The notes: generated from the sequence alone by a model not told the origin. Positions 39,506 through 61,240 are shown, numbered from the stretch's first letter. The stretch: 64,000 nt of DNA from a virus (IMGVR_UViG_3300005436_000501:63095-127094); one strand, 5' to 3'. Translations and numbers: made by a program.

Positions 39506-40153
39506 TCAGCGCGCGAACACCAGCAGCGCGACCGCGCCCAGGCCGAACGCTGGCGCGAAAAACAGCGTCTCCAGCTTGTTCCCGGTGCGCTGGATCACGG
39601 GGAGCATGTAGTGCCGCCGGTGCGGCCAGAGCAGCGGACAGCCCTCTTTGGTCAGACAGTCACCGGCCAGGTGCGCGAGGATCCCGGCCGCGACCGACCA
39701 CGGCAGCCACGACAGATCCGGCAACAATACCCACGTCGCGACCGCGGCGAGGAACCCGAACCCCGAGGACGCGCCCGGAGCCAGCCGAAGCGCGCGAGCC
39801 GCGAACGTGTAGAGCAGGAACAGCGCACCGATCTCGAACCAGCGGCCGAACACCGCGTCGCCGAGCCACGTCAGCAGCGGGACCAGGGCGGCGAACAATA
39901 GCGAATGCGTGGCGTGGCGGTGCCCGCCCGAAAGCCGGTGCACGATCCGGGTCACCGCCTTGCTGACCGGGCCGAACGTAAAGGCGATAGTGGCCGAGTC
40001 GTGGTCAGCATCTGCCAGCAACGCGGCACCCGCAGTGGCCAGCAGACCCGCAGCGACCGCGCCCCAGTGCGGGTGAACACCCACCGTGGGCGCGAGGCTG
40101 CACAGCCCTGCGAACGCGGTGCACCCGGACAGCGCGTGCGAGTGGCCGAGCAT
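39506..40153 (-). CDS. YdjM-like metal-dependent membrane hydrolase
   Basis: MLGHSH, ADADH, HRHATHS, HLAGDCLTKEG.PLLWP. Confidence 0.8.
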   Translation of the reverse strand: MLGHSHALSGCTAFAGLCSLAPTVGVHPHWGAVAAGLLATAGAALLADADHDSATIAFTFGPVSKAVTRIVHRLSGGHRHATHSLLFAALVPLLTWLGDAVFGRWFEIGALFLLYTFAARALRLAPGASSGFGFLAAVATWVLLPDLSWLPWSVAAGILAHLAGDCLTKEGCPLLWPHRRHYMLPVIQRTGNKLETLFFAPAFGLGAVALLVFAR

Positions 40154-40434
40154 CAGGCGGCCTCGTCGATACGTCGCAGGGTCTCGGCCCCGAACGGGTC
40201 CAGGCGCACACCCGGTTTGCGTCCGACGGCGAGGATCTGGTCGAGCAGTTGCCGGTACTCGGCGCGCGCCTCGGGCGGCAGCGCGAACACCTGGGCGCGT
40301 GCGTGCGCGTGGTCGCCGTTGGCGGCGGCGCGCAGCCCGGTCTCAATCAGCGCGCTGACGGCGCCGTCGGCCGGGCCGGCGTATTCGTGCACCTGCCGTT
40401 CGCGCCCGAGCGTGATAGCGGTGATCTCGGCCAT
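40153..40434 (-). CDS. Hypothetical protein
   Basis: RBS AAGGAG; overlaps next gene. Confidence 0.55.
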   Translation of the reverse strand: MAEITAITLGRERQVHEYAGPADGAVSALIETGLRAAANGDHAHARAQVFALPPEARAEYRQLLDQILAVGRKPGVRLDPFGAETLRRIDEAA

Positions 40435-40459
40435 GGTCGTGTCGTCTCCTTCGGGGTGG

Positions 40460-42523
40460 TCAGGCCGCAGCCTGGTAGTCGGTGTCGGCCCACATGCCGG
40501 GGTCGGTGCCCAGCGCCGCGTACACCCCGTGGGTGACGCGCAGGATCCTCCCTGCGTCCACGTCGCGCCTGAGCGCCTGGGAGACGGCGGACGGGTTCAG
40601 TCCGAGTTCGGTCACCAGCGCCCCGGAGGTGACATGCCCCGGGTGCTGCGCGAGGTAGGCGCGGATCAGCTCGCGCGCGCTGCCCACGGCGGGCGTTTCG
40701 CCCTGCTCCGCAGCGTCGCGGGCGGCGGCGGTACCGGATGCCGCACCGACGGCGGGGGCGGCGTCCTGCGTCTGCGCCGCTTTCGCCTCGGCCGTGTCCG
40801 CTGCGGTCGCCAGCGGCGTCAAATGCGCTGTGCTGCCGGCGTCCGCCCAGTCGAACACGGCGTTGTCGTCGAGGAAGAACGTGCGGAACTTCGCCGGCCG
40901 GTCCGCGCCCAGGATGTAACCCAGGCCGAAGGTCTTGGATCCGTCGGGGAACTGCTCCTCCAGCAGTCGCGGGTCGCCCGGCAGCTTCGGGAACGCCCCG
41001 CCCGTGATCGCGTCCTCCGTGCGCAGGCACACCACCGACATGGACGCGAGCAGCGGCCGGATCGTGAACGAGTTGCCGAGCTCCGCGATCGACGGGATCT
41101 GGGTGACCAGGCGCAGCCGCACGCCGCACTTGCGGCCCATCGACACCAGCCGCTCGATCAGCCACTTGGCGCGCGGGTGCGCGAGCACCATCGGCGCCTC
41201 GTCGATGGTGACCGACAGGATCGGCAGGTCGAGGTCCAGGCCGAGCCGCGCGTAGGCGGCCGGGTCGTAGTAGCTCAGTCCCTTGTGTTCGCGGCCCTTG
41301 TCGTCGAACCATTTGACCTGCGCGAGCAGCTTGTTGCGCGCGATCATCTCCGCGAACGCGTCCTCGAGCATCGCCAGGCCCTCGACCGGTCCGCGCGCGA
41401 ACCGGTCGACGCGGTCCTGCCAGTCGGGCAGCGACTGGCCCTCCTGCGGATCGCAGATCCAGGACACGATCAGGTGGCGTCCGTGCGGGTCGGTGGCGTG
41501 GCGTTCGCACAGCAGCGCCTGGTCCAGGTACCGGGACTTGCCGGAGCCCGAGCAGCCGACGACCACTTCCATGTTGGTGCCGGACTTGGGCTCCCAGAAG
41601 CGGATGCGCGCGGGCTGGCCGTTGATGCGCCGCCCGACGGTGGCGCATCCGGTGTCCAGGTCGATGGCGGGCCCGGGGAACGCGACGTTCTCCTGTAGGA
41701 GGTTCGTGGTGAAGATGGCGACGCGGGCGCGGTCTTCGCGCTGGTCGTCCCACCGCTCGAATGAGATCATCTGGCGGGCGGTGCCGCGCTGCGCGGCCAT
41801 GCGCTTGTGCACTGCGAGGGATATCAGGTCGTCGTAGGACTGGCGGTCGGCGTCGAGTTGCACGTCCAGGTATGCGCCCAGCTTGTCGGCGCCCACGGCC
41901 AGGAGCTTGGACCCGGGGGCGAAGCCGCTGCGTTCCGGGGCGGCCTTCGCGGCCCACCAGGCGGTGATCTCTTCGCGTAGCGCGGAGTACTGGTCGCGCT
42001 CGGCCCGGGGCGCGCTGGTGCGCTCCCGGCGGCGAAGGTGTCGCGCCCACCAGGTGCCGGAGGCGGCGAGCGCCCCGGCGCCGAGGACGTCCAGGGCGAG
42101 CGGCGCGGTGGGGGACAGCGCTGTGGCGGCGCCCAGGTAGAGCAGCGCGGCGGTGTAGGCCAGGGCGTAGTAGGCGCGGCGCATCAGCGAGGGCGCGCGG
42201 TGTCGGTCGCGGCGGTAGAGCAGGTATCCGGCGAGCAGGAGTGCGGCGTACAGCAGTGGCCAGCCGAGGGCGGGCCCGTGTGCGGCGCCCTCGGCAGCGG
42301 CGAGCACGACCCCGCCCGCAGCGGCGGGCGCGAACTCCTTCGGGTGTGTGGCCGCGCCCTTGACTGCGGCGACGGTCAGGTCGAGGGCGGCGTGCCCGGC
42401 CCGGCTGGCCCCGGCGCGGGCGAGCGCGCCGAGTTCGTCGGCGATGCGCTCGCCGACGCCGCCGCGCGCCGGGGCCGCGGGGGCGGTGCGGCGCGGCGGG
42501 GGCCGGTAGTCGGTGTCGCGCAT
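40460..42523 (-). CDS. FtsK/SpoIIIE-family TraB-like DNA translocase
   Basis: N-terminal TM helices; Walker A GCSGSGKS; Walker B VTIDEA; MGRKCGV.L.LVTQ; GLGY; C-terminal winged helix; RBS AAGGAGG. Confidence 0.82.
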   Translation of the reverse strand: MRDTDYRPPPRRTAPAAPARGGVGERIADELGALARAGASRAGHAALDLTVAAVKGAATHPKEFAPAAAGGVVLAAAEGAAHGPALGWPLLYAALLLAGYLLYRRDRHRAPSLMRRAYYALAYTAALLYLGAATALSPTAPLALDVLGAGALAASGTWWARHLRRRERTSAPRAERDQYSALREEITAWWAAKAAPERSGFAPGSKLLAVGADKLGAYLDVQLDADRQSYDDLISLAVHKRMAAQRGTARQMISFERWDDQREDRARVAIFTTNLLQENVAFPGPAIDLDTGCATVGRRINGQPARIRFWEPKSGTNMEVVVGCSGSGKSRYLDQALLCERHATDPHGRHLIVSWICDPQEGQSLPDWQDRVDRFARGPVEGLAMLEDAFAEMIARNKLLAQVKWFDDKGREHKGLSYYDPAAYARLGLDLDLPILSVTIDEAPMVLAHPRAKWLIERLVSMGRKCGVRLRLVTQIPSIAELGNSFTIRPLLASMSVVCLRTEDAITGGAFPKLPGDPRLLEEQFPDGSKTFGLGYILGADRPAKFRTFFLDDNAVFDWADAGSTAHLTPLATAADTAEAKAAQTQDAAPAVGAASGTAAARDAAEQGETPAVGSARELIRAYLAQHPGHVTSGALVTELGLNPSAVSQALRRDVDAGRILRVTHGVYAALGTDPGMWADTDYQAAA

Positions 42524-42554
42524 GCCGTGACCTCCTTCGGGTTGGCGGAATTGG

Positions 42555-43109
42555 TCAGTGCTGCCGGAGCGTCGGGGGCGCGCCGTCCGCTTCGGCTGCG
42601 CGCGCCTCGTCGGCCTGGTTGAGCCGCCAGCAGGCGACGGCGTCACCGTGGGACGGCCGACAGTTGGCGTGGTCGACGCGCCCGTCGACAGCGGATGAGA
42701 GCAGCGCCTGGGCCAGGTCGCGCTCGCCCTGGAGCGCGACCACGTTGTGGCGCTCGGCGCCCGCCGTACACGGGCGCAGCGCGGCGAAGACGACCGCGAG
42801 CAGGTGGCGTGACGCGGCGACCGGCATGGCGAGAGCGAGCAGGGTCAAGTCCGGGCACTGCGGAACCTGGGCGGAAAGGACGGTCACCGGCCGGTCGATG
42901 GGCTCGCCGAGCGGATGCGGTTCCCACGCAGGCGATTCGGTGGCGCGCCCGAGAACGCGGGTCCAAAGCGTGGCGACGGCGTCGGGCAGCGGCTGGTTCG
43001 GGTCGGCCGCGAACGGGCGCGTGTCGCGGTGGCGCAGGAAGTCGACGATCGCGATGGACTGCACGGGATCGGCTGCGCCCACGGCGCCGGGGTGGATGGG
43101 GCGGGTCAT
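42555..43109 (-). CDS. Hypothetical protein of the transfer cluster
   Basis: RBS GGAGG; in operon. Confidence 0.5.
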   Translation of the reverse strand: MTRPIHPGAVGAADPVQSIAIVDFLRHRDTRPFAADPNQPLPDAVATLWTRVLGRATESPAWEPHPLGEPIDRPVTVLSAQVPQCPDLTLLALAMPVAASRHLLAVVFAALRPCTAGAERHNVVALQGERDLAQALLSSAVDGRVDHANCRPSHGDAVACWRLNQADEARAAEADGAPPTLRQH

Positions 43110-43134: not shown

Positions 43135-44277
43135 TTAGCTGGCGGGCAGTTGCGGGGCGCCGGCGGCGGGCAGCGCGTCCTGGCCGCCGGTGTCGGCGAC
43201 GCCGTAGAACGCGCCGTGCGCCCCGGAATGCCCGGTCGCCATCGCGGCCTCGGCGTGCGGCATCTGGTGGCTGGCGAGCACGTCGAGCGCGGTGCGCGCG
43301 GTCTCGTGGTAGTTCGCCGCGGCGGACGCCATCACGGACGCGGTCGCGGCGGCGTCGTGGCACTGCGCGGAGAACGTCGCGGTCTGGTCGCGGTAGACCT
43401 GGCCGGCTTCGAGCAGGGCGTGGTAGGCGGCGGTGGACTCGGGGTCGACGCGCAGCATCGCCATCGCGGCGACGGCGTGTTCGAGGGAGGTGGTTTCGTC
43501 GGTGACGCGGGCCGCGGTCTCCCCGGCGAACTCCGCTCCGGCGATCATGGAGGCGGAGGCGGCGGCGGCGTCTTCGGATTCCATGCCGGCGACTTGCGCG
43601 GTCTGGCCGGTGAAGTGGACGAGGGACTCGAGGTCGGTGATGTCGGCGGCCATGGTGTCGGGGTACTCCTGGGGCTTGGGGACGAGGTGAAGGGGGACGC
43701 GGCCGAGTCGGCGCAGGGCGACCAGGATCGGGGTGGGTGCGGCGGGTGCGTCGCCGGGTTCGGTGGCGGCGTCCTCGGGGGCCGGGGCGGGTGCGGTCCC
43801 CGGGCGCGGGGGCGTGTCTCCGGAGCCGGGCGGCGGGGAGTCCGGCCCGGGGGTCGGCCCGGGTGCTGCCGCGGCCCGCGGGCCGCGGGGGGTGTCGGCC
43901 GCGTCCGGGGCGGCGTCGCGTGCGGGGCGTCGTCGTTCGTTCCAGTCGCGGGCGCGGCGCGCGCCGGCTGCGGTGTGGCGGCGTCCGGCCCGGTACAGCT
44001 CGATCCCGGTGGCCCAGCCCAGGGCGAACCCGACGCCGGTGGCCCAGCCGAAGCGGTGCGCGGCGTGCAGGGTGCGGCCGTGCACCAGCGCGCCGAACCG
44101 CCCGGACCGGGTGGTCGGGGCGGTGGCCGCGGCGCCCGCCGCGGTGGCGGGGGCGCCGGAATCGGGGCTCGCGCCACCGGGGGTGCGCAGCGACTCGCGC
44201 ACCCCGGCGGCGGCGGACACCGCCAGCACGATCAGGTAGTAGCCGACGATCGCGTCGAGCAGGTCCTTGAACGTCAT
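43135..44277 (-). CDS. Membrane-anchored protein with Pro-rich linker and Ala-rich helical C-domain (Spd-like)
   Basis: Hydrophobic N-terminus; helical region MAADITDLE...GAFYG; upstream of translocase. Confidence 0.55.
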   Translation of the reverse strand: MTFKDLLDAIVGYYLIVLAVSAAAGVRESLRTPGGASPDSGAPATAAGAAATAPTTRSGRFGALVHGRTLHAAHRFGWATGVGFALGWATGIELYRAGRRHTAAGARRARDWNERRRPARDAAPDAADTPRGPRAAAAPGPTPGPDSPPPGSGDTPPRPGTAPAPAPEDAATEPGDAPAAPTPILVALRRLGRVPLHLVPKPQEYPDTMAADITDLESLVHFTGQTAQVAGMESEDAAAASASMIAGAEFAGETAARVTDETTSLEHAVAAMAMLRVDPESTAAYHALLEAGQVYRDQTATFSAQCHDAAATASVMASAAANYHETARTALDVLASHQMPHAEAAMATGHSGAHGAFYGVADTGGQDALPAAGAPQLPAS

Positions 44278-44286
44278 CGCCGCCCC

Positions 44287-44940
44287 CTACACCAGGTGCG
44301 CGACGAGAGGGCCGACGTGCGCGGCGACGGCGGCGTACACCCAGGTCGCGCCCTGTCCGAAGTAGCCGGGCACGAGGGTGAACAGCATCGGGCCGAGGAA
44401 CACGAGCAGGTCGGCGTCGCCGTGGTGGGCCTTGCCCTCGATCAGGTCGGCGAGCAGGTGCAGGCCGCGCCACAGTGCGAGGATCGCGACGAGGCTGAAT
44501 CCGAGGGTCGCGGCCTGGTGCCCGGCGCCGGGGAACAGGTTCACCAGCCAGTGGAAGGCGCTGTCGGCGCGGCGGGCGCACCACAGCACGATGGTGCCGA
44601 TGAAGGTGCCGGACGCGGCGACGCCGGCGACGGCGAACAGGGCGAGCGCGGTCCATCCGGCGAGGTGGCGCAGCAGGTCCAGGGGTTTCGCGCCGCTGTT
44701 CCCCATGCCGGTGTCGGGTGTCGCGCGGCCCCGGCCCCGGGACGAGGCGGTGGTGCGGCGGCCGCGCAGCCCGCCGCGGATCGCGGTGGCGCGGGAGTTC
44801 AGGGACGCGGCGACGGTGGGTACGCGGCGGCGCAGGATCAGGGCGAGGATGAGGCTGACGGCGGTGAGGCCGAGCAGCGAGACGCTGGTTTGGGCGGGGG
44901 TCAGGCCGGTGGTCATGGCCGGCGGCGCTAGGGCGCGCAT
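44287..44940 (-). CDS. Multi-pass membrane protein (Spd-like)
   Basis: About four hydrophobic segments; RBS GAGGAG. Confidence 0.6.
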   Translation of the reverse strand: MRALAPPAMTTGLTPAQTSVSLLGLTAVSLILALILRRRVPTVAASLNSRATAIRGGLRGRRTTASSRGRGRATPDTGMGNSGAKPLDLLRHLAGWTALALFAVAGVAASGTFIGTIVLWCARRADSAFHWLVNLFPGAGHQAATLGFSLVAILALWRGLHLLADLIEGKAHHGDADLLVFLGPMLFTLVPGYFGQGATWVYAAVAAHVGPLVAHLV

Positions 44941-45117
44941 CGGGGTCTCCTCGATTTCACACCCGTGAACTTCACGGGCGGTTTGGGCGGCGATTCGGGG
45001 GATCTTGCTGGTGGGGCCGATCTTGCCTGCGTGGAGCGGCTGTCAATTTCACTGTGAATTCGTGGCGCGGCGACTGGGCGTGCTTGGCGGCTGGAACCCC
45101 CGGGCGGCACGGGTGGA

Positions 45118-45633
45118 GGGGTGTCACGTGCCGCCCGGGAGCGCTCGGGGGTGTCACCGGTGGGGGTGTCATGAGGCGCGCCGTTCGGGGGTGTCGTCCG
45201 CGTCCCGGGGGGTGTCACCGGCGGGGGTGTCGCTGCGGCGGCGGCTGCGTGTCACGCGCACGTAGACCTTGTCGACGGTGACACCCCGTGCGGCGAGCAG
45301 CGCCACGACGTGGGAGGCGACACGGTCGGGCAGCAGGTCGTCCAGGCGCCGCACGGCCTCCGCGTTGGACATCTCCGCCCAGGCCGGGGGGCCTGCGGCG
45401 TCGAGGACTTTGAGGTCGGCTTCGAAGTCGGCGTGGCTGAGCGGCACGGTGACACCCGTAGCGGGGGGTGTCGCTGCGGCGGTGCGCGATACCCGGGGCT
45501 TGCGGGGTGCGGTGCGGGGCGCTGATACGCGGGGTTTCGCGGGGCGTATCACCCGGGGGGTGTCACTCGCGCGGGGGGTGTCGACGGCCGGGGTATCAGC
45601 GGGGGTGTCGGCTGCGGGCGGCGTGGGGGTGTC
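45118..45633 (-). repeat. Array of 8-bp direct repeats GACACCCC (clt/TRS-like)
   Basis: 11 exact GGGGTGTC copies on + at 45118, 45148, 45163, 45188, 45209, 45224, 45465, 45557, 45575, 45602, 45626, plus variants and an inverted copy at 45280. Confidence 0.75.
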
Positions 45634-46308
45634 CGCTTCGCCGAGGCTGATGCTCAGGCGCACCGCGGCGGACACCTTCCAGCGCCACGCGCGCCCGTGG
45701 GTGTCGCGCAGGGCGGCGATCCGGGCCAGGCGCGCCCGCTCCTGGGCGAGCGCGGCCGGGTAGGAGTTGGTGCGCCACAGCACCATGCGCCGCCACAGCT
45801 TCAGCGTCGGCCAGGGGGACAGCAGCCAGCGGGCGGCGGGGATCGGTTCGCGCAGGTTCGCGTCGCCCTTGAGCGCGGTGCGCCGCACCACGTGCCGCAT
45901 CAGTTCGACGAACATCACCCACACCGACGGCATCAGCACGTGTGCGATGCGCCCGGCCGGGTCGCCCCCTGCGGCGTAGTTGAGGGCGACGGTGCCGAAG
46001 GTCGCGCCGTACACGGTGGCGCGGGCGAGCGGGTGGCTCATGCCGAGGCGGTTGAGGACCAGGTCGACGCCGGAGAACACCAGGACGGTCAGGTCGACGA
46101 CGAGGGGTACGAGCCACGCCCAGCGGGGACCGAAGCTGGGGGTCATGCGCTCGGACACGGCGTGGAAGGACAGGGTCATGCCGGCGACGGCGATGAGGGC
46201 GGCGAGGATCCCGATGACGACGGTGACGGTGGTCCAGCCGGCGCCGAGGGGTTCGGGGTCGTTGTGTGTGTCGTGGGTGGTCATGGCCGCCTCGGTGGTC
46301 GTGGTCAT
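45169..46308 (-). CDS. DUF2637-family membrane protein (plasmid/AICE spread-type)
   Basis: LSFHAV...AWLVPLVVD...TVALN...IPAARWLLSPWPTLKLWRRMVLW; C-terminal HTH-like region. Confidence 0.75.
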   Translation of the reverse strand: MTTTTEAAMTTHDTHNDPEPLGAGWTTVTVVIGILAALIAVAGMTLSFHAVSERMTPSFGPRWAWLVPLVVDLTVLVFSGVDLVLNRLGMSHPLARATVYGATFGTVALNYAAGGDPAGRIAHVLMPSVWVMFVELMRHVVRRTALKGDANLREPIPAARWLLSPWPTLKLWRRMVLWRTNSYPAALAQERARLARIAALRDTHGRAWRWKVSAAVRLSISLGEADTPTPPAADTPADTPAVDTPRASDTPRVIRPAKPRVSAPRTAPRKPRVSRTAAATPPATGVTVPLSHADFEADLKVLDAAGPPAWAEMSNAEAVRRLDDLLPDRVASHVVALLAARGVTVDKVYVRVTRSRRRSDTPAGDTPRDADDTPERRAS

Positions 46309-47867: not shown

Positions 47868-48137
47868 CTATGCGGCGGCCGGTAGAGCCGACTCCAGCTC
47901 GGCCTCGGCGCACTCGTTCTCCACGACGAACAACTCGTCGAAGGACCACTCGGGATAGGTCGCGAGGATCGCCGCGATAGTGCGGGCGCTTGGCGTCTCG
48001 TGCCCGTTGAGCAGTCGGCTCAGCGTCGGCTGGTTGATGCCGGTGGCGTCCGAGCGCTGAACGTTGGTGCGGTGTCCCGCAGTGTTGGCGACCTTTGTGA
48101 ACTGGGCCGCGTTGAGCCGGATCTTGACGGCGACCAT
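47868..48137 (-). CDS. Cro-like XRE HTH regulator
   Basis: ATGINQPTLSRLLNG..TPSARTIAAI...FDELF; RBS AAGGAG; divergent from repressor. Confidence 0.8.
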   Translation of the reverse strand: MVAVKIRLNAAQFTKVANTAGHRTNVQRSDATGINQPTLSRLLNGHETPSARTIAAILATYPEWSFDELFVVENECAEAELESALPAAA

Positions 48138-48312: not shown

Positions 48313-48789
48313 ATGGCCGCGCAAGACCAGGACACGGATGCCGCGTTCGTTGCATGGCTGCGGGACAGGGTCGAGGAACGCGGTTACGCCCTCGACGGTC
48401 GCGCCCGCCGTGCCGGCGGACAGTCGCTGCTGGCGGCCAAGGCCGGAGTCCCGCAGTCGGTGATCAGCCGCGCACTGAGCGGCCGGGGCAAGCCGTCGAT
48501 CGAGACGCTGATCGGTCTTGCGCACGCACTGGACACGGACGCCGCGGAGATGATGGAGCGTGCGGGTTACACGCGGCAGGCGCAGATCGTGCGCGCGGCC
48601 CGTTCGCGTGGCGGGGATGGGCTGGACGACGTACTCGACCGGATCGAGGCTTCCGGGCTGCCCGTGGGGGCGCGGCGGGAGCTTGCCAGCCAGTACCGCC
48701 GACGCTTGGCCCAGTTGGACGCGGACATTCTCGGGATGCTCGATGCCGTTCGCGCCAGCGTGGATCCGGTAGGCGCCGACAAGACCTGA
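48313..48789 (+). CDS. CI-like XRE immunity repressor, probably leaderless
   Basis: QSLLAAKAGVPQSVISRALSG..KPSIETL..LAHAL...MMERAGY; TACAGT 6 nt before ATG. Confidence 0.8.
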   Translation: MAAQDQDTDAAFVAWLRDRVEERGYALDGRARRAGGQSLLAAKAGVPQSVISRALSGRGKPSIETLIGLAHALDTDAAEMMERAGYTRQAQIVRAARSRGGDGLDDVLDRIEASGLPVGARRELASQYRRRLAQLDADILGMLDAVRASVDPVGADKT

Positions 48790-51601: not shown

Positions 51602-51714
51602 CCCGGCCCGAACCCGTTCTTGCGCTCCACGCGATTCAGTACATTGGTTGTGTCCGGCGCATTCGATGATGCGGCGGTGCAGCGGCAGTGCAGTGCCTGA
51701 GGCGGGCGGCCGGA

Positions 51715-52398
51715 ATGGTTGTGGTGGAGAAGTGGACCGGTGAGCGCGCCTGCCTGCTGCAAGCCGCTCTGCGCGCCACGAACGAATCGTTCGCGCACAG
51801 GTTGGGGATCGCGGTGCGCACCGTGGCGGCCTGGCACGCGGACCCCGCACTGGTACCGCGCGGCGAGGTGCAGGCGATCCTCGACACCGCCCTGGAGCAG
51901 GCCCCGGACGCCGCGATCCAGCGGTTCGAGGCGCTGCTGTTCACCCCGCTGCCGTCCTTCAAGCCCCCGGCCACTCAGCGCGGCCACGCCCAGCCCCTGA
52001 CGGTCGCTGTGGCGGTCGTGCGCCGAGGCGACAGCGTGCTGCTCGTGTGCAGGCGCGGCGGCGAGGGCGGCGGTCTGCGGTGGCAGTTCCCCGCCGGTGT
52101 CGTGAAGCCCGGCGCGGACCCGGCCGCGGTCGCCGTCGCGGAGACCCTGGGCGAGACCGGCGTGCACGCCGCGGTCGCCCGACCACTGGGCCGACGTGTG
52201 CATCCGCTGACCGGGGTCGTGTGCGAGTACCTGCTGTGCGACTACCTGACCGGGGACGCACGCAACGCCGACGAACTGGAGAACCTGGACGTCGCGTGGG
52301 CGCCCGTCGGTAGCCTGGGCAGGTTCATCCCGCCCGAGACCGTGTATCCGCCGATCCTCGACGCCCTGGAGATGCCCCGTGACCGAGCCGACGACTGA
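51715..52398 (+). CDS. XRE-HTH + Nudix fusion protein
   Basis: WTGERACLLQAALR...FAHRLGIAVRTVAAW; WQFPAGVVKPG...AETLGETG. Confidence 0.8.
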   Translation: MVVVEKWTGERACLLQAALRATNESFAHRLGIAVRTVAAWHADPALVPRGEVQAILDTALEQAPDAAIQRFEALLFTPLPSFKPPATQRGHAQPLTVAVAVVRRGDSVLLVCRRGGEGGGLRWQFPAGVVKPGADPAAVAVAETLGETGVHAAVARPLGRRVHPLTGVVCEYLLCDYLTGDARNADELENLDVAWAPVGSLGRFIPPETVYPPILDALEMPRDRADD

Positions 52399-52798
52399 GT
52401 CCGCGGCCAAGCCGCCGATCGCCGCCGCGGTCATCGTCAAGGACGGCCGGGTGCTCATGGTGCGCCGCAGGGTCGCCGAAGGGACGCTGTCGTGGCAGTT
52501 CCCGGCCGGGGCGGTCGAGGCGGGGGAGAACGCGGCGGACGCGGCGGTGCGCGAAACCGCCGAAGAGACCGGGCTGAAGGTGTGGGCCGCAGAGTTTCTC
52601 GGGCAGAGGCTGCATCCCGCGACCGGGCGCCGCATGACGTACGTCGCGTGCGACGTCCTCGACGGGGAAGCCGTGGTCGGGGATCCCGAGGAGTTGGACG
52701 CGGTCGAGTGGGTGGACGCCGCGCGGCTGGCCGAGCTCGTGCCGCTCGGGTTCTTCGCCCCGGTGCAGGCGTACCTCGACGAGGCGCTCGCCGTCTGA
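52379..52798 (+). CDS. Nudix hydrolase
   Basis: Intact Nudix box GAVEAGENAADAAVRETAEETGL. Confidence 0.88.
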   Translation: MTEPTTESAAKPPIAAAVIVKDGRVLMVRRRVAEGTLSWQFPAGAVEAGENAADAAVRETAEETGLKVWAAEFLGQRLHPATGRRMTYVACDVLDGEAVVGDPEELDAVEWVDAARLAELVPLGFFAPVQAYLDEALAV

Positions 52799-53141: not shown

Positions 53142-53341
53142 CGCCGGTCGCCGTCCCGCCCGGGCCCGTCGCCGAGCAGCGCCCGCACGTCCGCGCTGAT
53201 CTCCCGCGCCATCTGCACCGCCGCGTCCAGTTCCAGCGCCAGCGAGTCGGCGCGCGCGGCGAGGTCGCGCACGGTGTCGGCGAGCAGCGGCTCACCGTGT
53301 TTGCGCAGGAACTGCTCGGCCTGGGTCAGCAGATCCGTCAT
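53138..53341 (-). CDS. Small coiled-coil protein
   Basis: MTDLLTQAEQFL; ATGA overlap. Confidence 0.45.
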   Translation of the reverse strand: MTDLLTQAEQFLRKHGEPLLADTVRDLAARADSLALELDAAVQMAREISADVRALLGDGPGRDGDRR

Positions 53342-54134: not shown

Positions 54135-54577
54135 CAGGCGGCCCGCCCGACGGTGGGCGCGGGCTCCGAACGGGTCGCGCGGCGGGAGCGCAACCGGTTG
54201 ACCGTGTCGGGCGCGAAACTCAGCGCCTCGGGCCGGTCCAGCAGCGAGCCCAGGATCTGGAAATACTGCGCGGCACCGAACCCGAACCGGTCGCGGACCG
54301 CAGCCTCGCACGCGTCCGCGTCGTCGAAACGCGGCGCGCGCCCGGCGAACGCGAGCACGGCGCGCTCGATGCGGGTCAGCGCGCCCAGGCGTACGACCCC
54401 GGACCCGCGCACGGCGAGCACCGCGGCCACGAAATCGGCCAGCGACGTGCCCTGGAGCCCCTTTCGCCGGTCTGTGATGTCCCGGCGCTCGAGGCGGTCG
54501 AGCCACGCGTCGTAGTACGCCCGGTCGCCCGCCGCCCGGGTGATGTCGGGCGCCTGGCGTGGTCGGCCCATCACCAT
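54134..54577 (-). CDS. DUF3263-domain protein
   Basis: LT..ERAVLAF...EAAVRDRFG..AAQYFQ.L..LLD.PEAL...P..VNRLR. Confidence 0.65.
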   Translation of the reverse strand: MVMGRPRQAPDITRAAGDRAYYDAWLDRLERRDITDRRKGLQGTSLADFVAAVLAVRGSGVVRLGALTRIERAVLAFAGRAPRFDDADACEAAVRDRFGFGAAQYFQILGSLLDRPEALSFAPDTVNRLRSRRATRSEPAPTVGRAA

Positions 54578-57449
54578 CACGCACCCGCCTTCGGGTCGTC
54601 GCCGTTGTCGAGGATGTACGCCGCGCCGGCCCGCCAGGCGTCGCTGAGCGCCCCGTCGAGGGCTTGGCCGAGCGGGGAGCCCGCAGCGGCCCCCAGGCGC
54701 CGCAGCAGGCCCGCCACGGCCCCACGGCGTGCGCGCTCGGCCTCCGGAGTCCCGGCGGCGTCCACGGCGCCGCAGCGGGCTTGTGGGGCGTCGGGTGTGG
54801 CGACGGGGCGGAGGTGGGTGCGGGTGTCGGGCACCGCACGCAACCGGGCGGCCATCACACGCCCACCGTTCCGCGCAAGGCCTCGGCCGTGTAGAACCCG
54901 GCCATCTGGTCGCCGTCGGCGATCGCGTCATAGGCGAGCAGCGCCATCGCGAGCGGCCGGATCTGGTCGCGGTCCAGGCTGATACTGGTCAGCCCCGCGA
55001 TCAGGTTCAGGCGCGTGCCCTCGCTCGCGCGGGTCAGGAACAGCACGGCCAGGTCCACGGCGTCGGGGCTGGCGTGGCGTTCGCCGAAGTCGAGCTCGAG
55101 GGTGCCGCTGAAGCAGGCGCCGTCGTAGCCGGGGTCGTGGGGGTCCAGCGGGTGGCTGGTGCACCACGCGGCGTGCGGGCCGGGCTGCAGCGGGCTCACG
55201 GCGTCCACGCCCCGGGCAGTTCCTGCCGTGCGCGGTCCAGTGATTCGCCGACGGGGCTGAGCCGTTCGCTCGCCCTGATCAGGTGCGTGGCGATCAGGGC
55301 GCGGGCGGCGGCGTTCAGGCCGGGCACCCGGTGGAGTGTCTCGGTGAGGTGGTCGAGCAGGTCGCCCAGGGCGGTGATCAGGTTGTCGTCGCCGGTGCCG
55401 TTGAGGGTGCGCAGCAGCGCGGCGAGGTCGTCGGGGGTGGCGGGCTGCCAGGTGGCGGCGTCGCGGAGCCTGGTCAGGGCGGGGGCGAGGATCGGGTGGG
55501 GGGTGTGCTCGCTCATCGCGGTCCGTCCCATCCGGCGGCCGAGGCGTTGCTCGACGCGGTGGGCCCGGGGCCGGCCGGGACGGGCCGCAGGAGCGCCTGC
55601 ATCTCGTCGGCCAGGACCCAGCGGGCGCGTTCCCCGTGCGGGCCGTGCGCGGTGATGTGCGCGAGCGCGGGCAGCGCGGTCTCGTCCAGGGCGGTTTCGG
55701 TCACGGTGTGCCAGGCGCCGAACAGCGGCAGCAGGTCCCCGGGCTTGACGTCGCGGGCCGGGACACTGAGCGGCGTGAAACCGGCGGGGTCCACGGCGAC
55801 GGGGGTGTCGGTGTTCATCGCGCTGCTCCGTTCCGGGTGGGGGTGAGCTCGATCGCGAGCCTCGCCCACGCGTACGACTGGGCCAGCGGCCCGCCGGGCA
55901 TCGCCCGGATCTCGGCGATACGCCGCGCGGTTTCCTGCTGGCGGGCGCGGCGGTCCGCGAGGGAGCTTTCCGCGGCGGCGGCCAGAGCCGCGGCGATACC
56001 GGCGGGGACGGGCTGCTGCGGGTTCACCGGGCCACCGCCGCCAGGACCGTGTCGGCGGGCAGGCCGCGGAACTCGGCGACCAGGTTGCGCAGGTCCGCCA
56101 ACTCGAGCGGCGTGAGGGCGTTCAGGAGCCTCACGGCGCGGGTCACGGACGTCGCGCGCTCGGTGAACGCGGCCACGGTGGCGGCGGTCGGCGGGTCCGC
56201 GAGGATCGGGGCGGGCAGCGTCGCCGTGCTCATCGGGCACCTGCCGCGGCGAACTCGAGCAGGCTGCGGACCTGGCGGCGGGTCGGGCGGGCGCCGGAGC
56301 GGCGCAGGGCGTTGCGCAGCCGGGCGAGGTCGGCCTCGCCGTAGCCGCCGACCGCTGCAGTCGCGATCGCGTGCTGGACGCGCTCCAGGGGGCGCGCGGC
56401 GGGCTTGTCGGCGGGGCTGTCGCTGAGGGGTTGTACGGTGGTGGTCACGATCCTGATCCCTCCAAGGTCCGGATCCGGCCCCGTCGCTGCTTGCATCAGT
56501 GGCGGGGCCGCCTGCTATTCGGGGTGGTGCTGCGTGGCCGCCCCGGACTCGAACCGGGAAGTGTGCCGCTCGGCCTGATCGGTCAGTCGGCGTCGCGGCG
56601 GAACTCGGGGCGCCAGCCCTGCTCGAGCGCCTGGCCGGGGGTGGTGTCGACCGGGGTGCGGTGCCCGCCGCGGTCCACGTGGGTGACCGTGGTGGCGTCG
56701 GGGGTCTCGGTGACGGTGAGGATCTCCCCGCGGCGCTGCGGGTGGGAGTGGGTGGTGATGCGGGTCACGGGGTGCTCCTTCGTTCGTCGTCGGCTGGTTC
56801 GGGGGTGGCGCCCCGCCCGGGGGCCCTGGATTTAGCCCCCGGGCGGGTGGTGCTGTCGACTGGTGTTGGCGCATCGGTCGGGTGCCGCGGCGCCGCCTAT
56901 CCGGCGCCGGGACGACTTATGCGGCCTGGTCGGCCGTGGTGGTGGGGCGGGTGGGGCGGTTGCCGAGGACCCAGTCCAGGTAGTCGGCGCCGAGGATCAC
57001 GTCCAGGTCCGCGTCGGTCACGGTGCGGCGGGCGATCGGGCCGTTGCCAGCCAGCGCGTCCCGCAGTGCGTCCGAGCCCTCGGCCTGGTAGCGGCGGGTG
57101 ACGTCGCTGGGGATGTCGCCGGGGTCCGCGGGCGGCGGCAGGACGGGGGCGTCTACGGTGGTCATCGCTCGCAACCGCCCGCGTCCACGGTCTTCTGCGC
57201 GACATCCTGCGCGGTCTCGCACGGTCCGTCGTGGCCGAGGTCGTAGCAGCACCGCTCACCGTTGACGTCGGTCGGGCACTGCGGGTTGTCCGGCTCGTCC
57301 TCGGTGCAGATCTCGCGGAGCCGGGCCATGAACTGTGCGGCGCCGCGGACCTGGGCGCGCTTGGGGCGGTTCGGGCGGTTCGGGTCGTTCTGGCGGGCCA
57401 TCGCGGACTGGTAGGCCATCGGGTCCGACTGGGGGTTGGTCGCGGGCAT
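54577..57449 (-). CDS. Run of about ten small, mostly overlapping hypothetical genes (e.g. 54577-54858, 54855-55208, 55196-55516, 55513-55818, 55815-56027, 56024-56233, 56230-56496, 56583-56762, 56917-57165, 57162-57449)
   Basis: Successive ATGA/GTGA overlaps and RBSs downstream of the Xis-like gene; no recognised domains. Confidence 0.5.
56535..56575 (-). ncRNA. tRNA-like minihelix (acceptor-like stem + T-arm; no D or anticodon arm)
   Basis: GGCCG-AGCGGCACACTT-CCCGG-TTCGAGT-CCGGG-G-CGGCC-A. Confidence 0.45.
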
Positions 57450-57458
57450 CACGGGCTC

Positions 57459-57680
57459 CTAAGCGGCGGCGGGGACGGGGGCGGGCTCGGTCAGGGTGCC
57501 GGCCTCGACTGCGGCCAGGTAGCGCTCGCACTCCGACTCGCGGATGTGGTACTTGCCGCCCGCGACGTGCTGCATCCCCTTGATCCGGCCGGTGCGGATC
57601 AGGTCGCGCACACCGCTTGGACTCTTGCCGAGCACGGGCGCTGCTTCGGTGACGGAGAGCCACCTGTCCGTGTTGGGCAC
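57459..57680 (-). CDS. Excisionase-like HTH protein
   Basis: WLSVTEAAPVLGKSPSGVRDLIRTGRIKG.....GKYHIRESE; RBS AGGAG. Confidence 0.75.
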   Translation of the reverse strand: MPNTDRWLSVTEAAPVLGKSPSGVRDLIRTGRIKGMQHVAGGKYHIRESECERYLAAVEAGTLTEPAPVPAAA

Positions 57681-57806: not shown

Positions 57807-57829
57807 GTGCAACCTCTACGGGAGGAGGG

Positions 57830-58570
57830 CTACTCGTGGACCGGCAGGTCGTACTCCAGCAGGTAGCGGTCTCCGCCGAACACCATCACCAGCGCCTCGA
57901 TCGGAAGCCGTCCGTCCGTGTATGTGACCCGCAGCAGCCGAAGCACGGGGGTGCCGGGCGGCAGCCGCAACTCGCGGGACTCGCTCGCGGTCGGCATACG
58001 CGTCTGCACCCACTCCTTCGCAGGATGGCGGGGAATGTAGCCGAGCCTGCGCAGCGCGGCGAGCGAGCCGCCCTTCAGCCCGCTGGGGGAGTCGAGCTCC
58101 GTCCCGCGTGCGATCTCCACCGGGAAGTACGAGTCGACCAGCTCGATCGGCTTGCCCTTCTCGACCATCAGCCGACTGCGGCGTACCACGCGCACGCCCT
58201 CGTCCAGCCCCAGCTTCTCGGCGACGTCGCTTGGGGGCACCACCTCGGAGATGCCGAGCAGGCGGGAGGGTGCGCGGAATCGGGCGGGCTCGTCCCCCGG
58301 TGGGGGCGACGTGTAGTCGGCCGACCTGCTAACGGTCCGCTCGACGAACCGGACGAACACGCCCTTGCCCTGCTTGGACTCGACGAGGCCGGCGGCCTTC
58401 AGCGCGCGCACCGCGGCCTGGGCGGTGGAGTTCGAGGTGTCGTACTGCTCGATCAGGGCGCTCACGGACGGGAGCGCCTCGCCGGGCTGGATCTCGCCGT
58501 TCTCGATCCGTGCACGCAGGTCGTTGGCGATCTGGACGTAGGCCGGAGTCTCGCCCCCGAGCTCGGACAT
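57830..58570 (-). CDS. GntR/HutC-family regulator with UTRA domain (KorSA/TraR-like)
   Basis: YVQIANDLRARI..GE..PG.ALPS...L...GLV....GKGVFV; MPTASE...L.LP.GTPVL...R. Confidence 0.88.
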   Translation of the reverse strand: MSELGGETPAYVQIANDLRARIENGEIQPGEALPSVSALIEQYDTSNSTAQAAVRALKAAGLVESKQGKGVFVRFVERTVSRSADYTSPPPGDEPARFRAPSRLLGISEVVPPSDVAEKLGLDEGVRVVRRSRLMVEKGKPIELVDSYFPVEIARGTELDSPSGLKGGSLAALRRLGYIPRHPAKEWVQTRMPTASESRELRLPPGTPVLRLLRVTYTDGRLPIEALVMVFGGDRYLLEYDLPVHE

Positions 58571-58722
58571 GACGGCGCTCGCCTTCTTTCGTCACCATGC
58601 TGGCATAGCGCCATTAGCGCTATAGCGCTCTACGCTACACCGGATGTTGCATCAAGTGATCGTTGTGAAATTCACGAGGGCGCAGGCCCCGGGCGGGTAG
58701 CCAAGCGCGCCGGGGTCGCGCC

Positions 58723-59667
58723 ATGACCACACCCACCCTCGGCGCGCTCGCCCTGGTCTACGCCGAACGCGGCTGGCACGTCTTCCCCGTCACCCCCAAC
58801 GGCAAAGCCCCCGCCATCCCCGCCGCACATCCGGCGGGCGACCCGCAGCGCGGCGCCTGCAAGGGCGAGTGCGGGCGGCTCGGCCACGGCCTGTACGACG
58901 CCACGCTCAAACCGGACCAGATCCGCCACTGGTGGGGCTACTGCCCGAACGCCAACATCGGCATCAACGCGGGCGCCTCCGGCCTGGCCGTCCTCGACCT
59001 CGACGCAGGCAAGGACCAGCCCGCCCAAGTGCTGCCCGACCAGGGCGACGAACCTACGCCGCAGGGCGTTCACACCGGCGCGGACGTGCTCGCGTGGCTG
59101 TCCGAACGAGTCGGCGCCCGGATCGAGTTCGACACCTACGCGGTACGCACCCCCTCCGGCGGCGAACACCTCTACTACCGGCAGCCGGACCCGCCGATCG
59201 GCAGCAGCGCGGGGCGCCTGGGCTGGGCGATCGACGTGCGCGGCATCGGAGGCTCCATCATCGCCGCCGGGTCCCGCCGCGACGGACGTGAGTACGTGTT
59301 CGCGGGCAACCCGGACCCGGCGCCGCTGCCCGCGTGGATCGCGAGGCTGCTCGCGCCGAAACCCCGCCCGCCGCGCACCGGGACGCCGCCCGACTTCAGC
59401 GGCGCGAACGGCTCGCGCTACCTGGTCGCCGCGCTGCGCGGGGAGATCGACGCCGTGCTCAAGGCCGCGCCGGGCACCCGTAACGACACCCTGAACCGGG
59501 CCGCGTTCAACCTCGGCCAGGTCGCCGCACAGCGCGGACTCCCGCTGGACGCGGTGCGTGCGATGCTGATCGATGCCGGGCACGAGATCGGGCTGGAGGC
59601 GCACGAAGTCGCCGGTACCGTCGATTCCGGCCTGCGCGCCGGCCAAGCACAGCCGAGGCGCACATGA
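58723..59667 (+). CDS. Bifunctional primase-polymerase
   Basis: GWHVFP...K.P...HG..DAT.....I..WW.....NIGI...LAVLDLD...TPSGGEHLYY...IDVRG.G; GTRNDTLN. Confidence 0.9.
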   Translation: MTTPTLGALALVYAERGWHVFPVTPNGKAPAIPAAHPAGDPQRGACKGECGRLGHGLYDATLKPDQIRHWWGYCPNANIGINAGASGLAVLDLDAGKDQPAQVLPDQGDEPTPQGVHTGADVLAWLSERVGARIEFDTYAVRTPSGGEHLYYRQPDPPIGSSAGRLGWAIDVRGIGGSIIAAGSRRDGREYVFAGNPDPAPLPAWIARLLAPKPRPPRTGTPPDFSGANGSRYLVAALRGEIDAVLKAAPGTRNDTLNRAAFNLGQVAAQRGLPLDAVRAMLIDAGHEIGLEAHEVAGTVDSGLRAGQAQPRRT

Positions 59668-61043
59668 CCGTCACCGCGGACGACCTGATCGCCGAGCACG
59701 CCCCCGGGCTCCTAGACGCGGCCGAGACGGACAAGGAGCCCGCCAAGCGTCCCGGACTACTGCCCGAGGAGTTCTGGGCGGCCCGCGACGTCTTCGGCCA
59801 CATCCGCCGCGCCGCGTACGCCGAGGCCCGCTCCGGCGACGTGCTGTTCTACACGACACTCACCCGGCTCGCCGGAATGCTCGACCACCGCATCAAGATG
59901 CGCACGGGCATCCTCGGCCGGGGATCGATGAACTTCTACACGGCGCTGGTCGGCGCGTCCGGCGCGGGCAAGTCGTCCGGCGCGTCCGGGGCGCGCGAAC
60001 TGATCCCTTCGAACAACCCCGAGTTCCGCGACGGGCTACCGCTGGGTTCCGGCGAGGGAGTCGCCGAGGTCTTCATGGGCGTCGTGGACGAGGACACGGG
60101 CGAGATGCGCAAGGGCGAGCCGGTCACGGCCAAGGTCCGCAAGCAGGTACGACACAACGCGTTCTTCTACGTCGACGAAGGCGAACGGCTGACCCAGCTC
60201 AACTCGCGGCTCGGTACCGTGCTCGCCGAGACGCTGCGCAGCGCCGCGATGGGCGACACGCTCGGGCAGACCAACGCGTCCGAGGACCGCACCCGCTATA
60301 TCGCGCCGGGCAGCTACAGTCTCGGCCTCGTCATCGCCTACCAGCCGACCACGGTCACCGCGCTGCTCGCCGATGGGCACACCGGCAGCCCGCAGCGGTT
60401 CTTCTGGACATGGGCCGAGGACCCATCCATCCCGTTCGACGCGCCGGAGCACCCCGGACCGCTGGCCCTGGACCCGTGCGTGGAGAACGCGCAGCGCAAC
60501 CTCGACATCAGGTTCCCCGCGAGCGTCCAGGAGCTGATCCGCCGGGAACGCGTCCTACGGGGCCAGGGAAAGATCGAGGTCGCCGAACTGGACGGCCACC
60601 ACCGGTTCATGACCGCGAAGATGGCCGCGCTGCTCGCATTGCTCGACGGCCGCTTCGAGGTCGACGAGACGGACTGGGATCTTGCCGAGATGGCGTGGCA
60701 GTCCTCGTGCGCGGTGCGCGATTCCCTCGTACGCCGGGCGAAGCTCGAGTCCGAGGCGGCCCGGGAGCGCGAACAGGATCAGAAGGTGCTGCTCGCGGTG
60801 CGCGCCCACGGCGCCAAGCGCGGAGCCGATCTGCGGCTTGAGCGCATAGCGATCGCGGTGCGGCGCGCGGTGTCGAAGGCGGGGCCGGGCGGGTTGTCGT
60901 TCAACGGCGTGAAGATGGCGATCGCGAGCCGGGACCGGGACGCGCTGGAGGAGTCGATCGACGTCGCCGTCTCGCGGGGCTGGATCTACGAGGACGGCGA
61001 GCGGTTCTGTATCGCGACCGAGTTCGAGAACGCGGACGCGTAG
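59664..61043 (+). CDS. P-loop ATPase/helicase partner of prim-pol (DUF3987-like)
   Basis: NFYTALVGASGAGKS; SGEG; FYVDEG; G.PQRF; ATGA overlap with prim-pol. Confidence 0.75.
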   Translation: MTVTADDLIAEHAPGLLDAAETDKEPAKRPGLLPEEFWAARDVFGHIRRAAYAEARSGDVLFYTTLTRLAGMLDHRIKMRTGILGRGSMNFYTALVGASGAGKSSGASGARELIPSNNPEFRDGLPLGSGEGVAEVFMGVVDEDTGEMRKGEPVTAKVRKQVRHNAFFYVDEGERLTQLNSRLGTVLAETLRSAAMGDTLGQTNASEDRTRYIAPGSYSLGLVIAYQPTTVTALLADGHTGSPQRFFWTWAEDPSIPFDAPEHPGPLALDPCVENAQRNLDIRFPASVQELIRRERVLRGQGKIEVAELDGHHRFMTAKMAALLALLDGRFEVDETDWDLAEMAWQSSCAVRDSLVRRAKLESEAAREREQDQKVLLAVRAHGAKRGADLRLERIAIAVRRAVSKAGPGGLSFNGVKMAIASRDRDALEESIDVAVSRGWIYEDGERFCIATEFENADA

Positions 61044-61050
61044 TTGATCT

Positions 61051-61240
61051 TATGGACATCGGAGGCGGTATGGACGCTATGGACATATGGACGCGCGTCC
61101 ATACCCCCCCTCGCGCGCAGAATTCAGCGCCTCTAGAACTACCAGATACAACAACAAAAAGGACATCTTGTCTTTTCGTGCGCGCGCACGACACGACCCC
61201 TATGGACACATGTCCATATGTCCATAGCGCGTCCATAGTC
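61051..61240. repeat. Iteron-like TATGGAC repeats with AT-rich core (putative origin 2)
   Basis: Direct copies at 61051, 61069, 61078, 61086, 61201; inverted at 61097, 61212, 61220, 61231; central A-rich tract and CGTGCGCGCGCACG palindrome. Confidence 0.7.

Follow-up and report, generated by a model that had tools for sequence, protein, structure and literature searches.

Streptomyces plasmids and AICEs (the elements of actinomycetes that are both integrative and conjugative) such as pSAM2 transfer double-stranded DNA (dsDNA) by a single FtsK-like protein, TraB, in company with Spd proteins, a GntR repressor and a Nudix immunity protein. AICEs, which are often found in tRNA genes, have an integrase gene with attP at their end and do not form virions, while phage-plasmids are usually described as moving by particles only; for the plasmid-phage pZL12, spread of the genome without particles was reportedly shown by Zhong et al. 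in 2010. Here we describe a 64,000-nucleotide stretch of viral DNA (the window), G000:63095-127094, which is the right-hand 64 kb of the 127,094-bp IMG/VR record IMGVR_UViG_3300005436_000501 (G000) and encodes phage heads and tails as well as a block of genes around a TraB-like, FtsK-family translocase (the pump). We hold, at a probability of roughly 0.55, that G000 is a temperate siphovirus-type actinophage of a high-GC soil actinomycete, with an inherited dsDNA-transfer block used for intercellular spread of its genome.

In the published text available for AICEs (PMC2440964), the backbone consists of a GntR or XRE regulator, a Nudix hydrolase, prim-pol or primase-helicase replication genes and an FtsK-family transfer gene, and the three AICEs named there measure 10.9-17.3 kb. 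The accessible part of a 2020 paper (PMC7157519) treats pZL12 as a singleton among actinophages. SpdB2 homologues found on actinophages might aid the spread of phage DNA, according to a passage of PMC4447253, and the excerpt available of a 2025 review on plasmid mobility (PMC12282955) contains no mention of conjugative phage-plasmids. Our literature search, which left most subscription journals outside, found no description of a TraB-type block in integrative large actinophages.

Genes in the window (GC ~70%) were called by third-position GC (GC3), and families were assigned by Pfam, PHROGs and NCBIfam. A scan of IMG/VR with a single protein returned no relative of the pump, and an alignment-based scan returned 42 loci in IMG/VR and 12 in GTDB genomes; from IMG/VR, the nearest two records, G001 (132,777 bp) and G002 (111,156 bp), were taken whole. 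The minus strand carries all of window 3-48137. The earlier note on this DNA had placed a DUF2637 gene, two membrane protein genes, an FtsK-family translocase gene and a YdjM-like hydrolase gene downstream of a Cro-like gene, and the gene calls and Pfam matches recovered the DUF2637, translocase and YdjM genes in that position. The genes of the pump block are as follows, in window coordinates, with E-values (E) and lengths in amino acids (aa).

39506..40153, minus strand: YdjM-family membrane hydrolase, last gene of the pump block (Pfam YdjM, E 1.3e-20)
40153..40434, minus strand: small protein of 93 aa, translationally coupled to YdjM (gene call; no Pfam or PHROG match)
40460..42523, minus strand: TraB-like FtsK-family dsDNA translocase of 687 aa (NCBIfam match, AlphaFold (AF2) fold, Walker A motif, winged helix-turn-helix)
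42555..43109, minus strand: pump-operon protein of 184 aa without a family (gene call; no Pfam, PHROG or NCBIfam match)
43135..44277, minus strand: protein of 380 aa without a family, in which an N-terminal hydrophobic helix is followed by a Pro/Ala-rich linker and a C-terminal part made of helices
44287..44940, minus strand: polytopic membrane protein of 217 aa, first gene of the pump operon, with 4-5 hydrophobic segments
45169..46308, minus strand: DUF2637 polytopic membrane protein with a DTP-repeat linker (Pfam DUF2637, E 7e-20)

The claim of two membrane proteins in the earlier note held in part: the protein of 44287-44940 is polytopic and that of 43135-44277 has one N-terminal helix, but hydropathy gave no convincing hydrophobic helix for the protein of 42555-43109. 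Homologues of the 43135-44277 protein (47% identical) occupy the same position in G001 and G002, as do syntenic homologues of the 44287-44940 protein (43-46% identical), which has no family and for which the ESM Atlas gave no usable lead (best score 0.84). The DUF2637 protein is a candidate Spd-like protein; a DUF2637 gene also lies upstream of the translocase gene in the AICE-type loci L053 and L058, and four small genes separate it from the Cro-like gene in the window. YdjM homologues adjoin the translocase in 7 of 55 related loci, Pfam YdjM being found in G001 and G002 too, and phage-type early genes with PHROG matches directly abut YdjM in the window.

The only NCBIfam match of the pump is plasmid_TraB (NF041214; 47 bits, E 1.3e-12, residues 66-499). 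A profile built from 20 homologues found FtsK and EccC weakly among sequences of the Protein Data Bank (E ~0.005; FtsK E 0.006). The AF2 model, with a mean predicted local distance difference test score (pLDDT) of 69.5 and values mostly of 80-92 for residues ~180-590, was matched best by Foldseek to the FtsK motor domains 6t8o and 2ius (E 3e-14 to 1e-13, target TM-score 0.55-0.65), followed by TcpA, the coupling protein of pCW3, and then by EccC and EssC. The Walker A and B motifs are intact, Walker A reading G-x-x-G-x-GKS, and G323, G328, K329, S330, E442 and many other motor residues are invariant among the 20 homologues. A winged helix lies at the C-terminus (Pfam AbiEi_4, E 6.8e-6, residues 619-669), where the model has three helices and a two-strand wing (614-670). 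The N-terminus contains Ala-rich hydrophobic helices at ~60-165, with one window above 1.5 on the Kyte-Doolittle scale and low model confidence. An imperfect 91-bp palindrome in the 5' end of the pump gene is GC-rich DNA made of Ala and Arg codons.

Among 50,697 phage records, tblastn with the translocase found no homologue, and among 72,556 plasmids it found 105, of which 89 are from Streptomyces, at ~35% identity. Public protein homologues (P0001-P0018) are 42-88% identical to the pump, and some of them lie on contigs of 128-133 kb. In a tree of 57 pumps, which was built by FastTree only and with long-branch warnings, the window groups with G001 and G002 (support 100), and pumps from phage records and from genomes are interleaved. 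On the question of TraB versus chromosomal FtsK, which the earlier note had proposed to check, the pump is nearer to plasmid TraB but passes the cut-off of neither family. The translocase lies outside every curated family at that family's threshold; we class it as a divergent member of the TraB-like branch of FtsK-family pumps, one that plasmids, AICEs and phages have in common.

The pump block is contiguous and co-oriented with a genuine head-tail region, as claimed before, in which PHROGs name the large terminase (TerL), portal, head protease, tape measure, neck and minor tail proteins. The lysis part of the region that had been described is less firm, the genes in question being only loosely named (a GDSL lipase, a PLD-like protein and a weak glycoside-hydrolase-like match). 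The main virion genes are:

8785..11658, minus strand: tape measure protein (Pfam PhageMin_Tail, E 2e-22; PHROG, E 3e-70), in a tail module of ~2-16 kb
22518..26381, minus strand: fusion of portal and MuF-like minor head protein, 1287 aa (PHROG portal, E 2e-77, and head morphogenesis matches; Pfam Phage_portal and Phage_Mu_F)
28112..29608, minus strand: large terminase (PHROG TerL, E 8e-110)

The TerL proteins of Arthrobacter and Glutamicibacter phages share 50-60% identity with this TerL. The first ~580 residues of the portal fusion have no assignment except for a weak thymidylate-synthase-like PHROG match. Between the capsid and protease genes, a fragment resembling the DUF559 / MTES_1575 endonucleases (18962-19390, minus strand) may be what is left of a homing endonuclease. 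Small early genes fill 30-39.5 kb of the window; several of them match PHROGs, and they include, by Pfam and PHROG, Acb2/Tad1-like, HNH and MerR/HTH_17 proteins. The first of these, a protein of 78 aa with an Acb2/Tad1 hairpin domain (34013-34249, minus strand; Pfam E 2e-25; PHROG 1454, E 1e-30), is likely, by its sequence, to be a cyclic-nucleotide sponge against CBASS or Thoeris defence.

Gene order in the relatives places the virion genes and the pump block in one element. When the ~206 proteins of G000 were searched by tblastn, 31 matched G001 and 31 matched G002, collinear over the full length, and the matches take in small genes of the left 58 kb, tail, capsid, portal and early genes, YdjM, the pump, the genes upstream of it and GntR. 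YdjM is 63% identical in the relatives, the pump 50 and 55%, and two genes upstream of the pump 43-47%; TerL of G002 is 59% identical, and tape measure, capsid and portal are 26-33% identical. The pump is about as diverged as TerL and better kept than the tape measure, capsid and portal proteins. In both relatives the block stands at the same place, with the early genes on one side and the Cro-like gene on the other. The map of G001 is circularly permuted relative to that of G000, and the DNA that joins the equivalents of the two G000 ends in G001 carries genes of phage or plasmid type only (GntR, DnaB, Thg1, RNase T and small genes) and none of a host. The Thg1-like tRNA-His guanylyltransferase of G001 lies at 96500-97300 (L075 16500-17300; Pfam E 1e-19).

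Two further records, G004 (132.7 kb) and G005 (115 kb), have exact terminal direct repeats of 127 bp, which indicate circular assembly, and both carry the pump (31-35% identical). G005 has homologues of the tail-tube, capsid, portal and protease proteins together with YdjM and DUF2637, and G004 has homologues of TerL and of a virion structural protein. The TerL homologue of G004 is in two pieces within a single open frame of 1005 aa (32534-35440; L063/L064), which suggests an intein or another in-frame insertion. No terminal inverted or direct repeats were present in G000, G001 or G002. Among the 42 IMG/VR records, terminal repeats occur in nine and the provirus label in 14; Terminase_6C was found in 10, PhageMin_Tail in 16 and SPP1_portal in 13. 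At least one of these three virion families occurs in 26 of the 42 records, or in 27 if G005 is included by tblastn, and seven of the nine records with terminal repeats are among the 27. Seven of the other 15 records are fragments less than 50% complete, and these 15 may use virion families beyond the three searched. In a 59.7-kb record with terminal repeats (L025), genes for an SPP1-type portal and a scaffold protein follow 5-7 kb downstream of the pump gene, and a Nudix pair is nearby. The occurrence of a Streptomyces-type transfer pump in a tailed phage is more than an isolated case, being conserved in a lineage of 111-133 kb and met in at least 27 of the 42 pump-carrying IMG/VR records, and we regard this as evidence that the arrangement is widespread.

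The sole recombinase of G000 is a large serine recombinase (G000 59176-60681, minus strand), which lies just past the tail-fibre genes and ~2.4 kb to the left of the window; no tyrosine integrase was found in G000. At the same map position there is a tyrosine integrase in G001 (~26.7-27.3 kb) and in G002 (~67 kb). As the map position is the same and the kind of integrase differs between relatives, the gene looks like a replaceable integration cassette of the phage and not like the end of an AICE. Extension to an integrase and attachment sites, which the earlier note had proposed, thus yielded the recombinase beside the tail genes but no att-like repeats. Within the window, Pfam detected no integrase at 39.5-64 kb, no tRNA gene was found, and no convincing long direct, att-like repeats were seen around 39-64 kb; the direct repeats bounding a separate AICE that had been named as evidence to the contrary were looked for and none was found, nor was a tRNA gene or a second integrase. 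The view of the earlier note that a single virion-encoding element is at hand is borne out by the synteny of the block in diverged whole-genome relatives and by its presence in circularly assembled phage genomes. On these sequence comparisons, the single-element reading is strongly supported, and the pump block appears to be an inherited, old and conserved core part of the phage.

G000 bears the label provirus, and CheckV puts its completeness at 97%. An open reading frame is cut at the left end of the record, which suggests a contig end, and the right end falls exactly at the stop codon of the last gene, which suggests a boundary set by software. This last gene (63296-64000, plus strand) encodes a protein of 234 aa with a HEAAH metalloprotease-like motif and no family match. 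Since the integrase lies in the middle of the map in both records called provirus and G001 is permuted, these labels may not mark true attachment sites. An identical contig of 92,347 bp in sequencing run X1, which is possibly the source sample, extends 27,039 bp past the end of the window; an exact 40-mer scan and a protein scan of metagenome contigs for DNA past the right end found none. Runs X2, X5 and X6 held short pieces only, 90-99% similar. Outside the window, G000 13628-15301 (minus strand; L003) encodes a 557-aa protein with Ro60/TROVE and von Willebrand factor A (vWA) domains (Pfam E 1e-38 and 3e-17).

Two DNA features beside the pump operon bear on how a transfer system might operate here.

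44941..45168, no strand: regulatory spacer in which the palindrome GTGAANTTCAC occurs twice (44965-44975 and 45042-45052), with a GC-rich hairpin at ~45096-45144
45118..45633, minus strand: array in which the 8-mer GACACCCC occurs 12 times, candidate for a clt-like site (8-mer count and cluster scan)

On the coding strand, GACACCCC occurs 21 times in the window against 4.6 expected, a number reached by none of 100 shuffles. Twelve of the 21 copies fall within 516 bp, comprising the 3' end of the DUF2637 gene and the spacer beyond, and in an unbiased scan this array was the top 8-mer cluster of the whole 127-kb record. Seven of the 12 are in the D-T-P frame, one is in another frame, one runs over the stop codon, two are non-coding and one is inverted; one of the non-coding copies sits in the loop of the GC-rich hairpin (-41.8 kcal/mol, z -2.98). 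The top cluster of G001 lies at the same place and consists of another motif, CGACACG, with 19 copies in all three frames, five of them non-coding, and G002 has eight copies of CGCGAGC there in two frames. Because the clt sites of Streptomyces consist of short repeats in an array, which the winged helix of the Tra protein reads, we regard the GACACCCC array, by analogy, as a candidate clt site. Co-variation between the recognition helix and the array motif was also considered and dropped, as the three sequences are too similar to tell.

The palindrome GTGAANTTCAC, allowing up to one mismatch, occurs three times in the window against 0.66 expected, and four of 100 shuffles reached three. Two of these copies are in the spacer of 228 bp upstream of the first pump-operon gene, which encodes the polytopic protein, and an exact copy, GTGAAATTCAC, is at 58665-58675, in the spacer between the GntR and primase-polymerase (prim-pol) genes. 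In G001 and in G002, the only exact palindrome of each genome and a one-mismatch copy are located in the same pump-operon spacer. The pump operon thus seems to have a conserved palindromic operator of its own, which in G000 would be shared with the replication module, and this points to a separate regulator of the Kor/TraR kind. In pSVH1, the GntR regulator TraR binds upstream of the spd operon and spdB3, according to the part of PMC4447253 that deals with it. The earlier note had suggested that the transfer genes might be under the CI/Cro switch, whose two genes are:

47868..48137, minus strand: Cro-like HTH protein, first gene of the leftward early unit (PHROG HTH, E 1e-14; Pfam HTH_3)
48313..48789, plus strand: CI-like repressor, divergent from the Cro-like gene (PHROG repressor, E 8e-11; Pfam HTH_3, E 3e-9)

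Control by this switch alone is weakened by the palindromic operator that recurs in the GntR/prim-pol spacer and by the strong hairpin, which directly follows the stop codon of the DUF2637 gene. A consensus promoter scan of 39-49 kb returned no sites and one weak terminator, such a scan being uninformative in DNA of 70% GC.

The divergent side carries the remaining genes of AICE type, and here the Nudix pair, the GntR-UTRA regulator and the prim-pol gene that had been reported were confirmed by Pfam.

51688..52398 and 52379..52798, plus strand: overlapping pair of Nudix hydrolases (Pfam NUDIX, E 9e-12 and 2e-22)
57830..58570, minus strand: GntR/UTRA (HutC-type) regulator (Pfam GntR, E 3e-18; UTRA, E 2e-22)
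58571..58722, no strand: divergent GntR/prim-pol control region, with ATAGCGCT repeats at 58605-58637 and the exact palindrome copy at 58665-58675
58723..61043, plus strand: prim-pol (58723-59667; Pfam Prim-Pol, E 1e-36) and helicase (59664-61043)
61051..61226, no strand: iteron-like repeats, five copies of TATGGACA and its complement, after the helicase gene (repeat scan)

Like the CI-like repressor gene and the Nudix pair, an AAA_25 ATPase gene is divergent from the Cro-like gene. Nudix pairs, 50-64% identical, adjoin the translocase in 10 related loci, and GntR homologues occur in 16 of 55. The GntR-UTRA gene heads a minus-strand run of ~15 small genes (52815-57611). The Xis-like HTH that had been reported lies in this run, at 57459-57611, and its match is weak (HTH_17, E 0.0054). 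The run also encodes a DUF3263 protein (54134-54580, minus strand) that resembles NapA, a mycobacterial nucleoid-associated protein (NCBIfam E 1.6e-13, under the cut-off). The helicase part matches a primase/polymerase PHROG (E 1e-37) and is 60% identical in G002, and the TATGGACA repeats that follow it are a candidate origin. G000 possesses a second prim-pol module with an AAA_25 ATPase at 37097-39395 (L005), followed by six copies of GGGAACAG, and the GntR side of G001 carries a DnaB helicase in place of prim-pol and helicase. The replication modules appear to be interchangeable, with one perhaps used in lysogeny and the other in lytic replication.

From the likeness to Streptomyces transfer systems, we infer that the pump binds DNA, pumps it and serves intercellular transfer. 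If the operator is derepressed, the winged helix would bring the pump, predicted to be membrane-anchored and of hexameric type, to the 8-mer array on the phage DNA in its circular form, and the pump, with help from the membrane proteins, would move the dsDNA genome across septa or into neighbouring hyphae. The phage genome could in this way spread without particles, as was reportedly shown for pZL12. The Nudix pair, on the strand of the repressor side, may act like the conjugal immunity factor Pif, and GntR may act like KorA or TraR. We consider spread both as virions and from cell to cell to be a well-founded hypothesis.

Several observations weigh against this reading. Conjugation is predicted by analogy, and G000 may be either integrated or episomal. 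The translocase scored 21.1 bits against Pfam FtsK_SpoIIIE (PF01580; E 2.3e-4), under the gathering threshold of 24 bits, and reached 47 of the 800 bits that form the equivalog cut-off of NF041214; its match to the Tra protein of pZL12 is marginal (hhalign probability 49%). The proteins of G001 and G002 at the position of DUF2637 do not match Pfam DUF2637. The palindrome is missing from the GntR spacers of G001 and G002, so that the link to GntR comes from G000 only. As for the array, seven of the eight coding copies of GACACCCC are in one frame of a low-complexity DTP-repeat linker, and part of the signal could stem from peptide repeats or slippage; the array of G002 is weak genome-wide (p ~1e-5 to 1e-6 before correction), and the recognition helix of the winged helix is quite similar in G000, G001 and G002, yet their arrays differ.

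The pump block might instead serve the phage within its own mycelium, distributing or segregating the prophage or the replicating genome among the compartments of the hyphae and among spores, as a substitute for a partition system. ParA (PF13614) and ParB (PF02195) were each found in none of the five records G000, G001, G002, G004 and G005, FtsK/SpoIIIE pumps are established to clear DNA through septa, and, in the relevant passage of PMC4447253, SpdA2 of pIJ101 affects segregational stability and TraB acts in intramycelial spreading as well. Nevertheless, G000, G001, G002 and G005 carry an integrase, and an integrated prophage would need no such segregation, while the closest non-phage contexts of the pump are AICEs and plasmids, in which it is a transfer gene. 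We therefore regard a pure segregation role as rather unlikely, and it overlaps in part with the transfer reading, since the Streptomyces machinery serves both transfer and spreading.

Much less probable is that the ATPase and its partners form a device for superinfection exclusion or defence, which blocks or expels incoming DNA. ATPases of the FtsK/HerA fold do occur in anti-phage systems, HerA defence complexes were among the lower-ranked fold matches, and the Acb2/Tad1-like counter-defence gene nearby tells us that the region holds conflict genes. The block lies, however, on the early strand of the Cro side and not on the repressor side, the FtsK motor and a coupling protein of conjugation come out best in the fold comparison, and a winged helix that looks sequence-specific, together with an 8-mer array in cis, fits recognition of the element's own DNA. 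Least credible of all, and largely refuted, is the explanation by two elements, in which an AICE or plasmid segment lies in or beside an unrelated prophage and the common orientation is a coincidence. The set of GntR, Nudix, prim-pol, FtsK-like and HTH genes does match the AICE backbone as given in the part of PMC2440964 cited above, GC is 0.73-0.77 at 42-48 kb against ~0.70 elsewhere, and the translocase family is without a homologue among the 50,697 phage records. These points are outweighed by the same block at the same place in G001 and G002, with a divergence equal to that of the virion genes, by the circularly assembled phage genomes that have it, by the lack of an integrase, a tRNA gene or an att-like repeat around 39.5-64 kb, and by PHROG-matched early genes that directly abut YdjM. 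An AICE nested in a prophage is very unlikely, because nothing bounds an inner element, the relatives are syntenic, the integrase stands with the tail genes and circular records carry the pump.

If the pump works in the transfer of phage DNA, it would provide a particle-free route for phage spread in mycelial bacteria, with consequences for host range, for escape from resistance based on receptors, for gene flow in soil and for the classification of mobile elements. It is attractive to speculate, though we are more doubtful than confident here, that the records belong to an undescribed group of temperate actinophages of ~105-150 kb that possess an AICE-type pump as a core component with its own array and operator, spread routinely through hyphae in particle-free form and might, like TraB plasmids, mobilise host DNA as well. 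A single regulatory circuit would in that case have both infection and conjugation as its outputs, and AICEs and these phages would form an evolutionary continuum. The candidate recognition array and the operator make the transfer idea directly testable.

Compared with AICEs, the window contains the same gene set, i.e., GntR, the Nudix pair, prim-pol with helicase, and the translocase, but an integrase with attP bounding the element was not encountered in the window. Unlike in AICEs, the genes are spread across 22 kb within a phage of 127 kb and have neither an integrase nor a tRNA gene near them, YdjM is added, and the Nudix genes are on the repressor-side strand. The two AICE-type loci in Streptomyces chromosomes have pumps 37-39% identical to that of the window (tblastn; residues 152-669 and 241-670), and their genes run in the order GntR, HTH_17, WhiB, RNase T, DUF2637, three small genes, pump, primase-helicase and tyrosine integrase; the distance from GntR to integrase is ~13 kb in L058, and host genes flank the AICE in L053.

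TraB of pSVH1, as described in part in PMC4447253 (Thoma et al. 2015) and, for Vogelmann et al. 2011, via PMC3583192, is an FtsK-like pump associated with the membrane, and its C-terminal winged helix recognises 8-bp motifs that occur as repeats. According to the same portion of PMC4447253, membrane Spd proteins are encoded in an adjacent operon and a GntR regulator binds upstream. Unlike in pSVH1, the TraB score here is far under the cut-off, the candidate motif array is in the DUF2637 gene and not at the tra gene, and no partner protein of the pump has a recognisable Spd family. TraA of pWTY27, in the description given in an excerpt of PMC3583192, is a Tra protein of 688 aa with N-terminal transmembrane helices and a central FtsK domain, and its clt consists of repeated TGACACC heptamers, which, set beside our array by that description, resemble (T)GACACCCC, a likeness that may be due to chance.

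The precedent of pZL12 invoked by the earlier note stands up on the map. In pZL12 (GQ919031), tail, head and terminase genes are followed by the FtsK-like gene 71c, the 766-aa gene 72c and the membrane gene 73c, then by small genes including the Nudix gene 76c and by the divergent GntR-UTRA gene 80, which is the same design as that found here; as in the window, the tra block lies in one replicon with the terminase and head-tail genes, immediately upstream of them and in the same orientation. Kinship in sequence speaks against a close relation, as only four of the ~206 G000 proteins matched pZL12 at E <= 1e-3 (TerL 34%, Nudix 33%, GntR 30% and one short match). pZL12 is a 90-kb circular plasmid with ParA and ParB; unlike it, the lineage described here measures 111-133 kb, is without ParA and ParB, and has a serine or tyrosine integrase beside the tail genes. 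What is new is thus an integrase-bearing version, ~130 kb in size, of the conjugative plasmid-phage idea known from pZL12.

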